Part shown: piece by piece, positions 7,544 to 25,373 of the stretch
Layout of the letters: each line of letters starts with the position of its first letter
Numbering within the stretch: position 1 is the first letter of the stretch
Assembly (NCBI GenBank): GCA_021786105.1
Contig: JAJYNW010000021.1
Span: 1-25,552 of the forward strand
Source: a bacterium
GTDB lineage: Bacteria > Patescibacteriota > Microgenomatia > Daviesbacterales > UBA10151
DNA length: 25,552 nt
Direction: 5' to 3'
The notes under the pieces: generated by a model
The model's input: only the letters and a program-made list of their open reading frames with translations
Databases searched by the model: none
Told to the model about the DNA's origin: nothing
Position numbers and translations under genes: made by a program

Positions 7544-8229
7544 CAGATAATGATCTTTCAGACCTCCTCAATCAGCTAAATATAACATTCAAGGATCCAA
7601 AACTTCTACAGCAAGCCTTCTTGCACCGCTCTTACTTAAACGAGGTAAAAATTAATATGCTGTCCAATGAGCGCTTAGAATTCTTAGGCGATTCAGTCTT
7701 GTCTTTGATCATCTCTTATTACCTTTATACGCTAAGAACGACGGATTCTGAAGGTGATCTAACAAACCTCCGGGCTCATATAGTAAAAACTAAATCCTTA
7801 GCAGAAGCAGCCAAAAAGCTTGAGTTAGGAAAATATTTAAAACTCTCCAAAGGAGAGGAACTTTCCGGAGGAAGAAACAACCCCCAGCTTTTGGCCAATA
7901 CTTACGAAGCACTGATAGGAAGCATATTCTTAGATCAAGGCTTAGAGGTAACCAAAAATGTTGTCAGCCAAACATTACTGCCTCTTTTTGAGAAAGAACT
8001 AAAAATGGGCCCGCCAAAAGATGCAAAATCCAGTCTGCAAGAAGTAGTGCAGCAAAGACTTAAGGAATCACCACATTATAAAATTATGGAAACCAGAGGA
8101 CCGGATCACGCCAAACAGTTTACTGTAGCCGTATATATTGGCGGGAAGGAAATGGGCCGGGGTTCAGGTAACAGCAAGCAAGTAGCCGAAGAACAAGCTG
8201 CAAAATCGGCCCTGGAAAAGCTCACTTAA
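7540..8229 (+). CDS. rnc: Ribonuclease III
   Basis: NERLEFLGDSVL signature; C-terminal dsRBD (GPDHAKQF, SKQVAEEQAA). Confidence 0.97.
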   Translation: MTDNDLSDLLNQLNITFKDPKLLQQAFLHRSYLNEVKINMLSNERLEFLGDSVLSLIISYYLYTLRTTDSEGDLTNLRAHIVKTKSLAEAAKKLELGKYLKLSKGEELSGGRNNPQLLANTYEALIGSIFLDQGLEVTKNVVSQTLLPLFEKELKMGPPKDAKSSLQEVVQQRLKESPHYKIMETRGPDHAKQFTVAVYIGGKEMGRGSGNSKQVAEEQAAKSALEKLT

Positions 8230-13283: not shown

Positions 13284-13325
13284 CTATACCCTAAACGCTA
13301 TACCCTAAACGCTATACCCTAAACC
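13284..13325. repeat. 3 x 14-bp tandem repeat (two alternating heptamers)
   Basis: (CTATACC CTAAACG)x3 with the last base C; abuts the stop codon at 13326. Confidence 0.92.
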
Positions 13326-15128
13326 CTATCTTACCTGGTATGTTCCCTTAACCAAGGAGAATGAGCCGGCCGGCCCTGATGAGAAAAATGTCGAAGCAAG
13401 GCCTGATTGGTAAGTAAGCGTAGAAACATTACCCAAATCAATCTCCCAAGCTGTCAGTTCATTAAAGCTCGAACCATTTGCCAATTCCACCTTTCCATAA
13501 GGGGCATAGATAATTCCGCTGAAAGAAGAATTACCACTATCAATCGCTTCTACTCCGCCATTTAAAACCGAGTTATAGGTAGAAAGCAACATTAGGTAAC
13601 TACCGGAGGTTCCCGATCCTGCAAAATCAACTGAATTACCTAAAATTGTTTTTCCGTCTACAATAATCATGCCTGAACCTGCTCCAAAGCTTGAATCAAG
13701 CATAAACCTAGTACTGTTACCCACATTTAAGGCCCCTGTAATCCAAACAGGGGAAAAGACTTTAATGTTACAGCTGTTTCCCAAAGATACATTACCGTTT
13801 ATCTCACCCGGGCCAAGAGTTGACGGGCAGCCTGAAACATTTCCGTTTGTAATCCCGGCTGCAGCAGCCTGGTTTTTCCAATCAGTAATGTTGGCATCAG
13901 AAATAGGGAAAACAGCCGGAGCAGGATCGGTAGATCCCGGATATTTAGTACCGGAAACCGTGACAGAAGGACCCAGGGTTTGATAATAAGCATCCTTGGA
14001 AATAGTCATATTGCCGGTAACGGTATTGGCATGGACACTACCATTAACCGCTGAGCCATTAGTTAAATTTAGTGATGTCGGTGCACCTCCCATGTAAGTC
14101 TGGAACCCCAGATCCCCGGAAATGCCAGTCCAAACCGGGCTACCCGCCTGCCAGCTGGCAGACCACTTGGCAGCGCCTTGAGTGTAGCTTCCAGCTAAAT
14201 CAAGCGACCAAACCCAATAGTTTGAGTTATCTAATGATTGAGAATGAATCATAATCCAATAGGGAGTACCATTGTTTAAATTAGGTGACGTGCTGAATGT
14301 TACATCTACAAAACTATATTGATTTGTTACTAAATTAGCTGATAACGTCCCAGTTGCTAAAATTGTATTTTTGTTTGGCTTACCGCTGGAATCAGCCATA
14401 ATCCTGACCGTGGGATTAGCTGGTGTTCCAACCTTTTTAAGCTTTAAGGAAACTTTATTTAATATCCCATCAACAAAAGGCCTAAAGCTCTGAGCCACGT
14501 CCTGACGATTTTCTCCTCCTACATTTTTCCCAAAGATATAATCCTGACAATTTGCATCAATACAATCACTTTGCTGATCAGCAGTTGGTTGGCTAGCTCC
14601 GGCTATATAAACATCACCGGTAAATGTATTACCATCTCCTCCTAAGATATTGCCGTTTGAGTAAATAGAACCCTTGATAGTATTGGTATTTCCCATCTGC
14701 AAACCCCCATTGCCAATTTGCATGCCATAATTAAAGGAAAGACCTTCGCCTTTTGAAGCTTGTATGGTAATTGTCCGTTTTACTTTAGGGTTGGCTTTAT
14801 TGGGAATATAACCGGTGACCTGCAAAATTTTAGTGGCTGCATCTTTATCAGTCACTATTACAGAATACGATCCCTCACCAAAACTAGTTTCAGCTTCACC
14901 GTTATAACTGCCGCCGGTCTTATTTAAAGAAGCCAAAGCCTTGTCAACTCCGGCCTCAGCTATTGCCATGGCTGACTCGGACCGGTAAGAATACTGGGCA
15001 TTTTGGAAATAAACTTGGGAGCCGGCAATAACAAACAGCACTGTAAAAAGCGCAATTCCCAAAGCCGCAAAGGTCAGAATTAAAATCTGCCCAGACTGAT
15101 CCTTTAGATAGCCAGAAAAATTAATCAT
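13326..15128 (-). CDS. Large PilX-like minor pilin / putative tip adhesin (600 aa)
   Basis: SG|QILILTF leader without Glu5, AMAIAEAGV, inserted beta domain (AQSF...VSLKLKKVG...YWIMI), GIIYAPYG beta-rich C-terminus. Confidence 0.78.
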   Translation of the reverse strand: MINFSGYLKDQSGQILILTFAALGIALFTVLFVIAGSQVYFQNAQYSYRSESAMAIAEAGVDKALASLNKTGGSYNGEAETSFGEGSYSVIVTDKDAATKILQVTGYIPNKANPKVKRTITIQASKGEGLSFNYGMQIGNGGLQMGNTNTIKGSIYSNGNILGGDGNTFTGDVYIAGASQPTADQQSDCIDANCQDYIFGKNVGGENRQDVAQSFRPFVDGILNKVSLKLKKVGTPANPTVRIMADSSGKPNKNTILATGTLSANLVTNQYSFVDVTFSTSPNLNNGTPYWIMIHSQSLDNSNYWVWSLDLAGSYTQGAAKWSASWQAGSPVWTGISGDLGFQTYMGGAPTSLNLTNGSAVNGSVHANTVTGNMTISKDAYYQTLGPSVTVSGTKYPGSTDPAPAVFPISDANITDWKNQAAAAGITNGNVSGCPSTLGPGEINGNVSLGNSCNIKVFSPVWITGALNVGNSTRFMLDSSFGAGSGMIIVDGKTILGNSVDFAGSGTSGSYLMLLSTYNSVLNGGVEAIDSGNSSFSGIIYAPYGKVELANGSSFNELTAWEIDLGNVSTLTYQSGLASTFFSSGPAGSFSLVKGTYQVR

Positions 15129-15717
15129 TCCTCAAATTTACCTCCGATACTGCAGTATTGGTTTCAGTGTTTATGCCATTTTTCTGCTTCAATATTAAAG
15201 TCGTCCTGATTTTTACCGCCTGAGTAGGAGAGACCTCGACCGGCGGAATAGCCGAGTTAAGATACTGAAAACTCAAACTGTCAACACTATTGGAAAAAAT
15301 CCTATCTGCTGATTTCCTGAAACTTGAAGAATTCGGAAAAACCTTGTAATGCAAAATCTTTTGGTCAGTATAAATAACCATAAAATCATAAGCATTGGCA
15401 ATTATATTACCGGAGGAATCTATCGAGGATACCTTCAAAACCAGTTGGCTGGCGCTGGTGGTATAAGTCGTTGAACCACTTGTATAGGAGGCAGCCACTG
15501 AGCTTGCCAACTTAACGTTGTTGCGGATCGCTGCCAGAGCATCATTAATATTTAAACCTTCCTGAATCTGGGAAGACTGCTGATAAAATATCCCGGCGCT
15601 GTTTGTGATAATTACCACCAGCAGTATACTTGCCGTTACAGCTATCCCCAAGGCCACCAAGACTTCTATAAAGGTTAGTCCTTTTTGATATTTGATATTT
15701 GATATTTGATATTTTAT
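15121..15717 (-). CDS. Minor pilin; N-terminus extends upstream of the tracked TTG at 15660, start uncertain (ATA at 15717 proposed)
   Basis: In-frame upstream translation (I/M)KYQISNIKYQKG|LTFIEVLVAL restores the prepilin motif. Confidence 0.7.
   Translation of the reverse strand: MKYQISNIKYQKGLTFIEVLVALGIAVTASILLVVIITNSAGIFYQQSSQIQEGLNINDALAAIRNNVKLASSVAASYTSGSTTYTTSASQLVLKVSSIDSSGNIIANAYDFMVIYTDQKILHYKVFPNSSSFRKSADRIFSNSVDSLSFQYLNSAIPPVEVSPTQAVKIRTTLILKQKNGINTETNTAVSEVNLRND
15684..15711. repeat. (TTTGATA)x4 perfect heptamer repeat in a pilin leader
   Basis: Read directly from the sequence. Confidence 0.93.
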
Positions 15718-16145
15718 TGGTTTATCCCTCCTTCTCCAATCATGGTTTTTAATGTTAAGGTTTGGGGTTTATTATTATCCTGCCAGTTAACCGTAACTGT
15801 GACTTGCTTAATAGACTCTCCGTTTGTACAAACAGAAGTCTCGCAATTTGCCCATACTCCCGGCGATGTTTCTATTCCCACCACTACCGTTCCGCTTCCT
15901 TGAGGTAACGAACTTAATCGCGAATCAGCAATCGGGGTACTGCCGAGCGGTATGTTGATATATTTAACCGTTCTCTTGTCCTCAATTTGCTTGACCGCTA
16001 TTTCCCTGGCTAAACTCATATGCTGACTTTTACCCACCAGCACCAAAGCGTTGGGGATATTGGCCAATAAAAAAACCGCCGAACCAATTACCACGATAGC
16101 CAATAACGATTCAATCAAAGAAAATCCGCCTTCTTTTTTCTTCAT
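15714..16145 (-). CDS. Minor pilin (prepilin cleavage/methylation motif)
   Basis: MKKKEGG|FSLIESLL; VTVTVNW. Confidence 0.88.
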   Translation of the reverse strand: MKKKEGGFSLIESLLAIVVIGSAVFLLANIPNALVLVGKSQHMSLAREIAVKQIEDKRTVKYINIPLGSTPIADSRLSSLPQGSGTVVVGIETSPGVWANCETSVCTNGESIKQVTVTVNWQDNNKPQTLTLKTMIGEGGINQ

Positions 16146-18341: not shown

Positions 18342-18951
18342 AAATCTTGCCTCCCTGTTCAATAATTAAAGATTTTGTATTTGTGGTTTTGGTATTCCGC
18401 AGCGTAATGGTGAGTGAAGTACATCGCGCATCGTCTCCAATATTTATCTTACCAGTAAGAGGATCAAATCTTACGGCAAATGCAGTAAGCGGCGGAGCAC
18501 TGGGACAGTATGAACAGCTGGAAACCATACCACATTCTCCGGTTATGGATTGTATTGTAATATTTGCCCCTAATTTAAAGGTTTTTTTGGTAGTCAGAGC
18601 AGGCGTAGGAGAGGGGAGGGGAAAGGAAAGCGGAGAAGGTAACAACTGGCAATTTAAGTTAGTCGTAATAAGATCATTTGAGAAATAAACCTGCCAGGTA
18701 GTACCAAATTGATTACTGGCACATGCTGAATTAGTAGTAGCATTGGTTTGAGCTAAACGAAGCTGGTTCTGAAAATCTAAGACTGCATTTTTTAAATTTT
18801 GGTCTTCACCGAAACCACTATAGTTTGCTAGTGCATAAATGCTAGTTATAGCAATAATTGCTATAACTACTAAAAGCTCAACTAAGGTAAAGGCATTCCG
18901 GACAGTTTTGCCCATATTTTCATTGTACATTGTATATTTTTCATTGTACAT
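18331..18951 (-). CDS. Minor pilin (FimT/GspH-like)
   Basis: NA|FTLVELLVVIAII, LRLAQTNA, IEQGGKI. Confidence 0.85.
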   Translation of the reverse strand: MYNEKYTMYNENMGKTVRNAFTLVELLVVIAIIAITSIYALANYSGFGEDQNLKNAVLDFQNQLRLAQTNATTNSACASNQFGTTWQVYFSNDLITTNLNCQLLPSPLSFPLPSPTPALTTKKTFKLGANITIQSITGECGMVSSCSYCPSAPPLTAFAVRFDPLTGKINIGDDARCTSLTITLRNTKTTNTKSLIIEQGGKIYVQ

Positions 18952-18952
18952 T
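18917..18952. repeat. Heptamer-period tract in a pilin leader
   Basis: CATTGTA CATTGTA TATTTTT CATTGTA CATT; encodes MYNEKYTMYNEN. Confidence 0.8.
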
Positions 18953-18953
18953 C

Positions 18954-19442
18954 CTAAGGAGGACCGACTGTAAAATTATATGAGCCACCGGCTTCGCAAC
19001 TGCCGACTACAGAAGAAGTATTCGCTAATTTGGCGCAAAGAGAATAATTATTGCAGTTGCCATTTACAGCTGAATTATCACAGATTGCAGGACTAATAGG
19101 TAAAGCAGTATAGGAATACTCCGGACTGCCGGTTGGGTCAGTCGGAATGGTGTTAAGGTAGGTTTTTTTGCCGGTCGGATCTTTTAAAGCACAGCCGAAC
19201 TTAAAAGCACCATTGGTGCAGCTAGTACCTGCTGCTGGATAATAACCCTGGTCTGAATAGTATTGCTCCAAGGCTGATTGTATTGATCTTAAGTCTGACT
19301 GTCTTCTTGCATCCTGGCCTTGCTTGATGGCAGTAGAGTAAACAATCAAACCAATTGCCGAAAGTATGGCTATTATTGACATACTAACCATCAGTTCAAT
19401 TAAAGTGAATCCGTTGTTTGTAAAACCATTCTTTTTGGGCAT
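18954..19442 (-). CDS. Type IV pilin, GspG-like
   Basis: NG|FTLIELMV, DARRQSDLRSIQSALEQYYSDQGYYP, IPTDP. Confidence 0.9.
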   Translation of the reverse strand: MPKKNGFTNNGFTLIELMVSMSIIAILSAIGLIVYSTAIKQGQDARRQSDLRSIQSALEQYYSDQGYYPAAGTSCTNGAFKFGCALKDPTGKKTYLNTIPTDPTGSPEYSYTALPISPAICDNSAVNGNCNNYSLCAKLANTSSVVGSCEAGGSYNFTVGPP

Positions 19443-22920: not shown

Positions 22921-23364
22921 TTATTGAGCGTTTCTTCTACAGTAAAAACCATTAGCACCGCCAGTTGTTCCTAAGTTAGCACCAGTTGTACTCGTTGCGT
23001 TCCCAATGCTTGTTTCTAGAGTAGCACAGAGAGTATAACCTGCAGTGCTCAATGATCCAGTTCCGCTAGGACCAGAACTTGCATAAGCTGAGGCACCTCT
23101 TGGATCGACAGGTACAGTTTGATCAGAAAACCAAGTAGATGAAACTGTGGTTGGATAAACATTATTTTGATAGTTAACTTCCATGGCTTTAGACATAGCG
23201 ATAATATCTTGAATTCTTTTTGAATCTCGGGCTTTTTGTTGGGTAGAAGTAAATAGGGCAATACCGACAACAGACAAAATAGCAATAATGGCGATCACAA
23301 CAAGTAACTCAATTAAGGTAAAACCTTCAGGGTTATTTATTGTTTGGGGCAGATATTTTTTCAT
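22921..23364 (-). CDS. Type IV pilin
   Basis: EG|FTLIELLVVIAIIAILS, ARDSKRIQDI, VPVDP, YTLCATLE. Confidence 0.92.
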   Translation of the reverse strand: MKKYLPQTINNPEGFTLIELLVVIAIIAILSVVGIALFTSTQQKARDSKRIQDIIAMSKAMEVNYQNNVYPTTVSSTWFSDQTVPVDPRGASAYASSGPSGTGSLSTAGYTLCATLETSIGNATSTTGANLGTTGGANGFYCRRNAQ

Positions 23365-23439
23365 TAAATTTTTGCTTACAATCCATTATTCACATAACCA
23401 AAAAAGTCTGTCAAGACCCAGTTTAGCCTCAATAATAGT

Positions 23440-23487
23440 TCAAAATTCAAAAATCAAAAGTCAAAAGTGCAAGTAAAAAGTCAAAAG
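23440..23487. repeat. TCAAAAN heptamer arm (left)
   Basis: TCAAAAT TCAAAAA TCAAAAG TCAAAAG TGCAAG TAAAAAG TCAAAAG. Confidence 0.85.
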
Positions 23488-23855
23488 TTTTTAGCTTTTA
23501 ACTTTAAAACACCCGCTGCCAACATATTGGCAATTTCAGTTGCTTCAGCGAGTAATTCATCCGCAGTTTTTATATTAGCTATTCCTGAATCTTTAAGTAA
23601 ACTAAGCCAATATTTTGTCTCATTAGCACTTTTAAGAGCGGTTTCATAAAACTTTTTATATTCTAATCTAGAACTGGCAGCGCTACCTTCAATAAGATTC
23701 GCACCGATAGACATAGCAGAACGCAAAAGTTGATCTGCTATTATCCATGCTGCTCTTTTATTCGGTAAAGTATCCATAAACGTAATCATAGCTAGGCTAA
23801 ATTTATAGCATCTTGTCTTTATATCACTTTTAAATTTTGAACTGTAATTTTGCAT
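23481..23855 (-). CDS. Four helix bundle protein (23S rRNA IVP-like family)
   Basis: DQLLRSAMSIGANLIEG, ALKSANETKYWLSLL. Confidence 0.92.
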   Translation of the reverse strand: MQNYSSKFKSDIKTRCYKFSLAMITFMDTLPNKRAAWIIADQLLRSAMSIGANLIEGSAASSRLEYKKFYETALKSANETKYWLSLLKDSGIANIKTADELLAEATEIANMLAAGVLKLKAKNF

Positions 23856-23874
23856 TTTGAATTTTAACTTTTGA
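23827..23874. repeat. TCAAAAN heptamer arm (right, inverted)
   Basis: Reverse complement reads TCAAAAG TTAAAAT TCAAAAT GCAAAAT TACAGT TCAAAAT TTAAAAG. Confidence 0.85.
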
Positions 23875-23875
23875 C

Positions 23876-24823
23876 TTATCTACCTATATGCAAATACCAT
23901 TCCACAATTTCCTGTCCCCAGAAAAGCATTATCAAACTTCCCAAAACCAGGAACGGACCAAAAGGGATAGTCTGACCAAAACTCTTTTTACCGACAAGGA
24001 CTAACCCTACTGATAATACGGCACCTGTTAAAAATGACAAAACCATAGCAAATAATGCCTGGGGGAATCCCAGCATCACTCCGATAAATGCTCCCAGCTT
24101 AACATCGCCGCCGCCCATCCCTTTTCCGCGCGTTACAATAATCAGGCTTAAGAAGAACCCGCCGATTAAAATACCCATCAATAAAGATAAAAGAAACGGC
24201 TCAGCTATCATTAATACATGTCTTTGAAAATAATCACTTTTAGGAGGAAGCAACAACCGGCCTATTGCAGATTGAGATAGCGCGTAATGAAGGAAACCTA
24301 TTTTTGTTATTGTGATTATTAAATTAAGAACAACCCCGATAATGATTGAGGGCAAAATTACCCGGTCGGGAATGAACATCTTTTTTAAATCCGTCAAGAA
24401 AAGAACTGTCAAAACCGTTATAAAAAAGGTTTTAAATATCAGCTCCAAACCAAAAACTAAAAATTGAAAATTTTGGACACTTAAAGCTAGCTGAAACTGA
24501 AAATCGGAGATTGGAAACGGAAAATTTTTAAAGCTTTGCCAAAATAAAAACCCCACCAAAATCCCCATCACCACTTCTATAGTCAAATACTCGACACTTA
24601 TCTTATCTTTGCAATACCGACATCTGCCCTTGAGGATTAAAAAGGATACAACAGGAAGAAGGTCATACCAAGCTAATGTATGTTTACATCGCGTACAGTA
24701 TGACCTTCCCCTAAATGACTTATTATTAAGGCTTCGATCCGCTAATACTTTTAAAAAGCTTCCCAGGATCGTACCTATAATAAAACCTACTAAAATAAAC
24801 CAAACCACAGTATTAATAAGCAC
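23876..24823 (-). CDS. pilD: Prepilin peptidase (A24)
   Basis: GSFLKV, RSYCTRC, GRCRYC, LTDL, MGGGDVKL, IPFGPFL. Confidence 0.95.
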   Translation of the reverse strand: MLINTVVWFILVGFIIGTILGSFLKVLADRSLNNKSFRGRSYCTRCKHTLAWYDLLPVVSFLILKGRCRYCKDKISVEYLTIEVVMGILVGFLFWQSFKNFPFPISDFQFQLALSVQNFQFLVFGLELIFKTFFITVLTVLFLTDLKKMFIPDRVILPSIIIGVVLNLIITITKIGFLHYALSQSAIGRLLLPPKSDYFQRHVLMIAEPFLLSLLMGILIGGFFLSLIIVTRGKGMGGGDVKLGAFIGVMLGFPQALFAMVLSFLTGAVLSVGLVLVGKKSFGQTIPFGPFLVLGSLIMLFWGQEIVEWYLHIGR

Positions 24824-25373
24824 AGACCAAACTCATATCAGAGCCGACAGCGTACGAATTATTATCAGTATCCCCATCAGTCGACATCTTGCCTCTTTGT
24901 TGCTGTGATTCTAACCGCGCCTTAATTATCCACTTTGCGCCATCACCACAATAAGTGTAGTGATATTCAGTACTGGCTGCGCCGTTATTAGTCGGATCAA
25001 CCGGCAAAGTTGGCACTGTGACATTTGACTGTCCGGCAAAATTAATTTGTACCCATCCCGTACCATTAGTCAGCCTTGTGTTAGCACCTGATGGATAAGT
25101 CCTGTTAGGACCACAAGTCACACCAGTAGCAGTATTATCATTACAGGCAGGAGACTGTTGAGCTGCTGCTGAGCCTTCCTGTAAAGCCACATTAATGGCA
25201 TTTTGTAAATTCATCAAATCGGAAAGCCGGGCCGCATCTCTACCTCGCATGGTTAACTCAAGCGGATTAATGATAAGCACCACAACTGCAGCCAAGATGG
25301 CAATAATTGCAATTACAACTAAAAGTTCTACAAGTGTAAATCCTTTATGTAGAACTTGAGCAGATTTTTTCAA
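24813..25373 (-). CDS. Type IV pilin, candidate major pilin
   Basis: KG|FTLVELLVVIAIIAILA, RDAARLSDL, LPVDP; strong SD AAAGGGGGTGAG before the TTG start. Confidence 0.92.
   Translation of the reverse strand: MKKSAQVLHKGFTLVELLVVIAIIAILAAVVVLIINPLELTMRGRDAARLSDLMNLQNAINVALQEGSAAAQQSPACNDNTATGVTCGPNRTYPSGANTRLTNGTGWVQINFAGQSNVTVPTLPVDPTNNGAASTEYHYTYCGDGAKWIIKARLESQQQRGKMSTDGDTDNNSYAVGSDMSLVCAY

Follow-up and report, generated by a model that had tools for sequence, protein, structure and literature searches.

In a genome of the Patescibacteriota, a small gene lies wedged between a prepilin peptidase gene and a pilin-like gene, with both of its ends buried in tandem arrays of a 7-nt unit. What is this combination of gene and arrays, and how did it come to lie among pilin genes? 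The gene belongs to PF05635/TIGR02436 (S23p), the "23S rRNA intervening sequence (IVS) protein" family, and to our knowledge the function of this family has remained unknown ever since rRNA intervening sequences were described. An earlier sequence-only reading of the locus had proposed an undescribed, transposase-free mobile cassette. We find that the architecture is real and recurrent, namely, an IVS-type cassette outside rRNA, with arms made of heptamer arrays and with hairpin derivatives. On balance, we favor the view that the stretch from about 23435 to 23879 is an IVS-like mobile cassette and that its protein probably recognizes its own repeats. The linkage of gene and heptamer arms is apparently undescribed: The open-access literature and preprints that were searched held no description of the general architecture, with a paper on the Coxiella IVS as the only related report.

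A four-helix-bundle gene enclosed by two inverted heptamer arrays

The window, i.e., the whole 25,552-nt stretch of DNA that was analyzed, is contig C13 of a 26-contig genome (G000; 1.04 Mb, ~40% G+C, 92% complete). On its minus strand, a pilin-like gene, a pilD-like prepilin peptidase gene (pilD), a 124–amino acid open reading frame (ORF), and a second pilin-like gene follow each other in this order (Table 1), and the pilin-pilD-pilin order is conserved in relatives. The pilD gene is co-oriented with the cassette and lies directly upstream of it. The cassette site is thus located between the pilD stop codon and the pilin promoter and not in a 23S rRNA helix, and no Rfam match at E ≤ 1 was found in 23200-24100.

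Table 1. Features of the cassette locus and orphan heptamer arrays in the window.
Feature	Position	Strand	Basis or remark
Orphan heptamer/14-mer array, CTAAACC type	13284..13329		Fills gap between co-oriented genes, overlaps the upstream gene's stop
Orphan heptamer array, TTTGATA × 4.4	15684..15714		Abuts the stop codon of ORF 15714..16145 (−)
Orphan heptamer array, CATTGTA × 4.6	18921..18952		Directly after the stop of ORF 18954..19442 (−)
Pilin-like gene with N-terminal methylation motif, downstream of cassette	22921..23364	−	ORF and profile, synteny
Promoter-like TTGACA-18-AATAAT, 5′ of the downstream pilin-like gene, outside the cassette	23385..23414	−	Same motif at relatives' empty sites
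3′ arm (gene orientation): inverted copy of the 5′ arm	23435..23488	−	Repeat search, TRF
Four-helix-bundle gene, 124 amino acids, PF05635/TIGR02436 ("23S rRNA intervening sequence protein")	23481..23855	−	Profile scores, 2RLD match, AlphaFold model, Foldseek
5′ arm (gene orientation): ~7 TCAAAAG-type units with one 6-mer	23826..23879	−	Repeat search, TRF
Prepilin peptidase, pilD-like, A24 peptidase	23876..24823	−	PF06750, PF01478; relatives keep synteny with flanking pilin-like genes
Pilin-like gene on the far side of pilD	24813..25373	−	ORF and profile

The two arms share one layout. When 23827-23874 is reverse-complemented, it agrees with 23440-23487 at 36 of 48 positions, and both stretches consist of four heptamers, one 6-mer, and two further heptamers (4 × 7 + 6 + 2 × 7). 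The stop codon of the four-helix-bundle (4HB) gene (23481-23483) lies inside the left (3′) arm, and its start codon (23853-23855) lies inside the right (5′) arm. Alignment and tandem repeat finding (TRF), which returned period-7 arrays at 23440-23488 (7.1 copies) and 23828-23874 (6.9 copies), thereby confirmed the architecture that had been read from the letters. A repeat search extended the arm pair to 54 nt with 74% complementarity, and a repeat scan of 23300-24000 yielded, besides the heptamer arms, short chance pairs only. The claim that the unit starts one base after the pilD stop holds for the 48-nt arm, which ends 1 base short of that codon (23876-23878), but not for the wider 54-nt similarity, which overlaps it.

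The arms are A/T-rich and built from a simple unit, and some similarity between two low-complexity stretches of this kind would be expected by chance. However, in the shuffled control that had been suggested for the arm similarity, 5000 mononucleotide shuffles of one arm gave at most 30 matching positions and never the observed 36 of 48, and the 6-mer interruption is common to both arms.

The encoded protein belongs to the IVS protein family

The window protein scores 81.4 bits against PF05635 (cutoff, 33.8) and 91.2 bits against TIGR02436 (cutoff, 24), and it matches a solved Bacteroides protein (PDB 2RLD) by sequence (E = 9.4 × 10−14). Its AlphaFold model (pLDDT, 90.9) contains helices at 6-27, 34-58, 63-89, and 95-121, and a Foldseek search placed 2RLD (TM, 0.82) and 2GSC (TM, 0.81) on top, followed by Avd, the accessory protein of diversity-generating retroelements (DGRs), at a TM of 0.70 to 0.74 (8UB7 and 4DWL). 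Both the family assignment and the Avd-like fold of the sequence-only reading were thus borne out. The likeness to Avd is one of fold: The window protein gave no match to NF033474 (Avd), a paralog (L001) showed a weak sequence relation (29.8 bits, below the cutoff of 80), and the repeat scan of 23300-24000 gave no sign of a template/variable repeat context. As no reverse transcriptase (RVT_1) match was found in the whole 92%-complete genome, an Avd-like retro-mechanism is unsupported here.

The entries 2RLD and 2GSC hold five chains each, and a Xanthomonas protein of the family is cited as a homopentamer (PMC4990558). Profile searches recognized no recombinase or nuclease domain in the 4HB protein, and the cassette, whose sole ORF is the PF05635 gene, contains no transposase of known class; the term transposase-free is accurate for the cassette's own coding content. 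The PF05635/S23p family is very large, with at least 8000 candidates by profile search, nearly all of them significant. Among the matches listed, homologs of the window protein were all of Patescibacteria type, the closest being labeled Daviesbacteria, Levybacteria, or Patescibacteria.

Gene and arms are gained or lost as one unit

We compared the pilD site with 19 other loci from the genus and family. At 10 of these, pilD and the pilin gene are separated by a spacer of 10 to 82 nt that contains the same promoter motif and no heptamers, i.e., by an empty site of the kind that had been predicted to occur downstream of pilD. One relative (G005) carries an orphan four-unit heptamer array at this position, and another (G014) a remnant (5′ arm ~90% identical, ~75 nt, degenerate 3′ arm) from which the ORF is gone. 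A third (G001) has an orthologous cassette near pilD, beyond an inverted pilin gene. At four loci the insert is of another kind, namely, an ORF of the Y1 type accompanied by hairpins of its own (three relatives) or what remains of it, and the remaining two differ otherwise. In addition, a 221-nt metagenome contig joins 23419 to 23876 via 16 letters, and its two flanking stretches of 56 and 149 nt contain 1 and 3 mismatches, respectively. This single contig (98% identical on both sides; depth, 2.5) is an empty allele of a near-identical relative. A comparison of filled and empty pilD sites revealed no clear direct repeat, with boundaries fixed only within ~5 nt. Overall, the gene and its arms are gained or lost as one unit.

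A comparison of the orthologous cassettes of G000 and G001 showed stronger conservation in the arms than in the ORF, with nucleotide identities of 91 to 93% for the arms, 79% for the ORF, and 69% for pilD. Conservation of this kind would suit an alternative in which nothing is mobile: A 4HB ring would read heptamers on RNA or DNA as a regulator, the flanking arrays would serve autoregulation, orphan arrays elsewhere would be operators for translation or termination control, and presence and absence would reflect ordinary gene gain and loss. It is at odds with such a regulator, however, that the arms arrive at the pilD site together with the gene.

Contexts other than pilD led to the same picture of a discrete unit. 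In four congeners (L019, L020, L070, and L116), blastn homology was confined to ~1448-1863 (~416 bp, comprising arms and ORF), and none of the six pairs showed similar flanks by tblastx. Likewise, two cassettes from different genera (L029 and L125) are 85% identical over 597 nt and have unrelated flanks, and several sites that are filled in relatives are empty in G000. Related cassettes hence occupy unrelated contexts, and their homology stops at the outer ends of the arms, an exactness that again counts against the regulator.

Stable synteny had been named beforehand as an observation that would weigh against mobility, and here the outcome was mixed. Many of the 75 4HB protein pairs at ≥60% identity have homologous flanks, and many cassettes are syntenic between species, which fits vertical inheritance and indicates that movement is rare. 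For the window cassette itself, one congener has an ortholog near pilD and a second one has a remnant, while the family of L019 resides in unrelated contexts. A site type with homologous flanking genes holds cassettes in G000/G018, G009, G020/G024, and G004, with proteins that are only 16 to 43% identical and with different heptamers. Since the flanking genes are possibly tandem paralogs, we read this as reuse of a site type and not as proof of replacement at a single site.

Heptamer arrays flank homologs in related genomes and on plasmids

At least one PF05635 match was present in 38 of the 41 related genomes that were searched, and a single genome of ~0.9 to 1 Mb can have as many as 14. From 26 genomes we surveyed 103 loci, in which a custom profile detected 91 4HB ORFs, 90 of them with full flanks. 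These were divided into a short set (79 genes of ≤140 amino acids from 25 related genomes) and a long set (11 genes of >140 amino acids), and 58 ORFs in the same loci that lie >200 nt from any 4HB gene served as controls. Lags of 4 to 12 were compared, and thresholds were set at a flank local score of ≥24 and a lag-7 array score of ≥8. In the short set, lag 7 was the best lag in 57 of 79 upstream and 58 of 79 downstream flanks (lag 8 in 8 and 9, respectively), and lag-7 arrays flanked 36 genes on both sides and 61 genes on one side or both. Complementary, i.e., inverted, flanks were found for 55 of the 79 short homologs versus 0 of the 58 control ORFs, where the maximum score was 22. Directly similar flanks were seen in 16 of 79 versus 2 of 58.

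The proposal that inverted heptamer flanks would recur around homologs was therefore confirmed. Together with the shuffles, the control ORFs refute chance resemblance of the arms, to which we assign a practically negligible probability; moreover, other contigs contain this arm pair as well.

The heptamer sequence varies from locus to locus, and some homologs have direct rather than inverted arrays. The ORFs are intact, with conserved polar residues. Cassettes usually sit in a tight intergenic gap directly 3′ of a co-oriented gene, and the upstream neighbor was co-oriented with the cassette in 54 of 61 cases. The 11 long genes showed a tendency to 9-mer arrays and no complementarity, and several of them carry a TIGR04258 suffix domain.

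Thirteen plasmid-borne homologs from five phyla, picked from 48 tblastn-matched records, extended the comparison, and most of them agreed with it. Inverted period-7/8 arrays abut the start and stop codons in eight (Calothrix, Aulosira, two Nostoc, Trichormus, Picosynechococcus, Riemerella, and Geminocystis), and the copy from Stanieria has weaker arrays. The others vary in arrangement: The Pseudanabaena copy is flanked by ~12 and ~10 direct heptamers and the Gemmatirosa copy by direct 8-mers, the Azospirillum copy lies inside an apparent 23S rRNA gene with heptamers downstream, and the Legionella copy has an upstream 8-mer array only. Two plasmid cassettes were located inside cas operons, one between cas10 and cmr3 and the other between cas6 and cas4.

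Hairpins without the gene and orphan arrays

The arms also occur without the gene. In G005, a full cassette lies between two convergent genes, and the same site in G000 (C8:25047-25122) consists of a 5′ arm, 14 nt, and a 3′ arm; it is just as conceivable that this hairpin is the older state and that G005 acquired the ORF within the loop. At least six metagenome contigs link the two arms of the window via 1 to 27 unrelated letters, and in an 8.6-kb metagenome contig these arms enclose a different sequence of 331 letters. Across public metagenomes, the summed contig depth of the arms was 10 to 40 times that of the ORF, and arm-only contigs end sharply at 23439/23440, 23486-23493, 23826-23828, and 23877-23879. 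ORF-less arm-loop-arm hairpins of the same arm families thus exist.

By analogy, the relation of hairpin to cassette resembles that of MITEs (miniature transposable elements with inverted repeats) to their autonomous parents, which likewise have terminal inverted repeats, presence and absence at a conserved site, multiple contexts with sharp ends, and short noncoding derivatives that share the ends of the coding element. Unlike a transposon, the cassette has no transposase domain. No target-site duplication was apparent within the ~5-nt precision of the boundaries at the pilD site. Its arms are, furthermore, tandem arrays with a unit that differs by family, and some of them are direct.

ORF-less hairpins outnumber cassettes, as would be expected if the hairpin arms were substrates of another enzyme that acts in trans (e.g., a Y1/HUH transposase, or replication and repair on cruciforms) and the 4HB gene were a passenger in the loop. 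Although G000 has five Y1_Tnp matches and a Y1-type ORF flanked by hairpins of its own occupies the same site 3′ of pilD in three relatives, the hairpins of that Y1-type element are different and not built from heptamers. Heptamer units that vary so widely between cassettes would be ill-suited to one sequence-specific enzyme, PF05635 is the only gene found in such loops, across phyla, and arrays stay at background density in the three sampled genomes without PF05635 (see below). We regard mobilization in trans as rather improbable.

Beyond the cassettes, G000 contains 62 period-7 arrays of at least three copies, compared with 2 to 15 for each other period from 5 to 11, and many of them are close inverted pairs that fill gaps between co-oriented genes. 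Sharing of at least seven exact 7-mers connects 16 of these 62 arrays with arms of the genome's own cassettes and 30 with cassette arms of the congener G018. Three orphan arrays of the window are listed in Table 1; the unit type of the one at 13284..13329 also makes cassette arms in relatives (TAGGGTT-type arms at L006, L007, and L012). Part of the orphan heptamer tracts is explained by ORF-less arm pairs that belong to the same families, and the earlier suggestion that the cassette might explain these tracts stands to that extent.

We next relate array density to the presence of the gene, using 49 to 200 kb sampled from each of 16 other genomes (17 with G000). Period-7 arrays occurred at 0.5 to 1.4 per 100 kb in all three genomes without PF05635 and at 6 to 25 per 100 kb in 11 of the 14 genomes with PF05635; despite PF05635 matches, density was low in G023, G034, and the G024 sample. 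Few 4HB genes accompany many arrays in G012, G009, and G011, and the reverse was seen in the G024 sample. The Spearman correlation between array and gene density was 0.53 (p = 0.03, n = 17 related and non-independent genomes), with 0.97 for the first nine genomes. Given this weak correlation, we treat the link between arrays and gene as qualitative and retain the contrast between presence and absence.

A nonmobile regulator also finds some support in these orphan arrays. Their positions coincide exactly with gene boundaries, right next to stop and start codons, their density is at background level in the three genomes without the gene, and direct-arm variants are compatible with binding sites; translational control has, in addition, been proposed for TAACTGA arrays that end just 5′ of start codons (PMC4679880). 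Yet many orphan families of G000 have no resident cognate gene, as the matches to its own (16 of 62) versus G018 arms (30 of 62) illustrate, and array density is not proportional to gene number. With the evidence from the filled and empty sites, we consider the regulator unlikely, if somewhat less so than mobilization in trans.

RNA stem versus recognition of the arrays

Can the arms act as an RNA stem that loops out the ORF, as the sequence-only reading had it? In the predicted fold of the gene strand, the arms are paired in both the minimum free energy (MFE) and the centroid structure (z = −2.9; 0 of 100 shuffles as good), in line with that idea. Across 63 cassettes, however, arm mismatches on the gene strand comprised 60 G-U, 50 A-C, and 140 other pairs, i.e., no excess of G-U over A-C, and homologs with direct arms cannot pair. 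In view of the lack of wobble bias and the direct-arm variants, a selected RNA stem cannot be the common denominator of these elements, and in light of the same two observations we prefer to see the shared feature in the encoded oligomer's recognition of the arrays. Excision at the RNA level would come in addition in copies with inverted arms.

The strongest form of the RNA view is a pure IVS, whose arms would form a stem that RNase III cuts to excise the ORF from the pilD-pilin transcript, with incidental heptamers and a protein that is dispensable cargo. Along with the predicted pairing, it can draw on an RNase III gene within the window (7594-7983), on the co-orientation of upstream neighbors (54 of 61), and on the Coxiella IVS, where a 28-bp terminal stem is cleaved by RNase III in vitro and the S23p ORF is apparently decaying (PMC4990558). 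The ORFs studied here are, by contrast, intact and retain conserved polar residues, with 91 of them matching the profile, and the period of 7 persists across differing unit sequences, although a stem by itself would not call for it. Adding the missing G-U bias and the direct-arm homologs that are unable to form a stem, we find a pure RNA-level IVS improbable.

Because 7 is not a multiple of 3, slippage-prone heptamers could alternatively switch the frame or expression of the gene, making this a contingency locus in which the inverted likeness of the arms is secondary. The arrays do extend over the start codon and into the beginning of the coding sequence, phase variation through heptanucleotide repeats has been described in Haemophilus, and in Coxiella three tandem heptamers precede the S23p start in a number that varies among strains (PMC4990558). 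But no arm indels were present in metagenome contigs from four runs, and switching would leave the matching arrays on both sides, the ORF-less hairpins, and the insertion as a unit unexplained. We deem a contingency locus very unlikely.

We return to the mobile cassette, in which the start and stop of a PF05635 gene are embedded in two inverted arrays of one heptamer. The encoded oligomer would recognize the heptamer arrays of its own cassette, with about one subunit per repeat, and its solved relatives are five-chain rings; that the protein binds the arms is something we purely infer. Such recognition may underlie the propagation and/or maintenance of cassettes and hairpins. Transcripts of copies with inverted arms could, in addition, fold into a long stem, a candidate substrate for RNase III as in rRNA intervening sequences, and cutting of this stem would limit the harm to the host operon.

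A broader proposal is offered more tentatively, as a possibility that we hold to be less likely than not to apply in full: PF05635 may be the dedicated factor of unrecognized, transposase-free mobile hairpin cassettes across phyla, with an oligomer that reads its own heptamers. Much of the heptamer tandem-repeat load of bacterial genomes that lacks an explanation might then derive from cassettes and their ORF-less derivatives, including the cyanobacterial STRR-type repeats, the heptamer hairpins in small genomes of Patescibacteria type, and the stems of rRNA IVSs.

Relation to known systems

The closest known relatives are the 23S rRNA IVSs of Coxiella, Leptospira, and others, where the same protein family is encoded within a loop that is closed by a stem of terminal inverted repeats. 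The resemblance extends to an ORF that is co-oriented with the host transcript, to a length of ~430 to 440 nt, and, in Coxiella, to tandem heptamers by the ORF start (PMC4990558); the Azospirillum plasmid copy in an apparent 23S rRNA gene has heptamers as well. The window element differs in lying between pilD and a pilin gene instead of in rRNA helix 25 or 45, and both of its arms consist wholly of heptamers, with an excision that is here predicted. ORF-less hairpins and direct-arm variants are apparently undescribed for IVSs.

Bacterial heptamer tandem repeats are familiar as the STRR of cyanobacteria. Published units include GGGAATC in Xanthomonas and GGGGA(T/C)T in Nostoc (PMC4692102) and TAACTGA in Beggiatoaceae (PMC4679880), which form intergenic arrays of 3 to 7 copies, often as convergent pairs, at gene boundaries (PMC4692102 and PMC4679880). 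According to one of these reports, no detailed literature on such repeats existed (PMC4692102), and terms for S23 or a four-helix-bundle gene have zero occurrences in the available portions of both (PMC4692102 and PMC4679880). The same kind of array flanks 4HB genes on cyanobacterial plasmids. What sets the cassette arrays apart from the published repeats is that they are tied to a gene and to insertion/deletion behavior.

The REP/RAYT system is similar in its many-copy, short intergenic hairpins and in a small associated gene flanked by them. The cassette gene, however, is not a Y1 transposase, Y1 genes being located elsewhere in the genome, and the cassette arms are tandem heptamers with many different units. 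TRAP binds (G/U)AG repeats, and it offers a functional analogy only, in that each subunit of a ring-shaped oligomer would read one short repeat of a single strand; its fold is unrelated, and the reading of repeats by PF05635 is putative.

The reproducible physical link between gene and heptamers provides a testable handle on both S23p function and bacterial heptamer repeats, and a little-known type of mobile DNA may explain many 7-base repeats of bacteria. It also accounts for small "hypothetical" genes that are wedged in operons, including cas operons. In uncultured lineages, the cassette is a possible marker of recent insertion or deletion. For annotation, it carries the warning that heptamer arrays may mimic other repeat classes. 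PF05635 ORFs have been reported inside 16S and 23S insertions in a survey of rRNA insertions in CPR bacteria (PMC11270868), and the label "23S rRNA IVP" appears in a figure legend of a CRISPR survey (PMC10910872).

Arm layout and insertion sites

Some cassettes carried a third arm. At a locus on contig C17 of the genome that holds the window (L001), and at two further loci among those collected (L006 and L016), we observed a composite layout of arm, gene, arm, loop, and inverted arm, where both ends of the gene carry the same arm as a direct repeat (35 nt in C17) and a short loop then leads to the third, inverted arm. In the C17 copy, the upstream ORF apparently continues into the arm and terminates at a stop codon that the arm supplies. 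The site that this copy occupies (C17:41653-42278) has homologues in five related genomes, viz., G018 (L079), G009 (L016), G020 (L119), G024 (L091), and G004 (L082). Across these loci, the flanking genes are homologous, while the proteins of the cassettes are merely 16 to 43% identical and the heptamers of the arms are different. This suggests that one kind of site has been used repeatedly. The genes on either side are possibly tandem paralogues.

The 3′ end of pilD, next to which the window cassette lies, also holds a different insert, of ~0.8 kb, at the same site in three relatives (L035 in G003, L042 in G018, and L051 in G010), and remnants of it are found in a fourth (L045 in G012). The insert is an ORF on the opposite strand that reads like a putative Y1/RAYT-type transposase. 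It is bounded by copies of a short palindrome rich in G+C, and in L042 by what looks like a duplicated 3′ end of pilD as well. The pilD stop region looks like a hot spot for insertion. In contrast to the other empty sites, the 199-nt spacer between pilD and the pilin gene in G006 (L049) contains a palindromic stretch of higher G+C content and may represent another small insert.

Variation of the arms and arrays

Within the right arm of the window cassette, position 23842 is a C, versus a T in 10 (X1) and 46 (X6) other metagenome contigs with this arm. The window copy accordingly differs, at the 6-mer interruption, from the form that is most common in the arm family. For a longer four-helix-bundle subfamily, the flanking arrays tend to be built from 9-mers rather than heptamers, and no complementarity was detectable between them. 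Three single heptamer arrays in the window stand within a long series of co-oriented genes, where each array begins at the upstream gene's stop codon or overlaps it.

Locations of features in the window and on other contigs of the same genome.
Feature	Location	Strand	Remarks
RNase III gene	window 7594-7983	+	PF14622, 130 bits
Heptamer array	window 13284-13329		single, without inverted partner
Heptamer array	window 15684-15714		single, without inverted partner
Heptamer array	window 18921-18952		single, without inverted partner
Composite cassette (L001)	C17:41772-42231		
Longer-subfamily member (L003)	C3:13699-14110		TIGR04258 suffix domain; subfamily of 161-213 aa, with L088, L106, L086, L139, and L110

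The window that holds the cassette also carries an RNase III gene. On two plasmids, four-helix-bundle cassettes were located within CRISPR-cas operons, between cas10 and cmr3 in Picosynechococcus (L068) and between cas6 and cas4 in Pseudanabaena (L145). A published figure legend includes “23S rRNA IVP” among the CRISPR-linked domains that it lists (PMC10910872), an entry that might stem from cassettes in cas operons or from their flanking tandem arrays.
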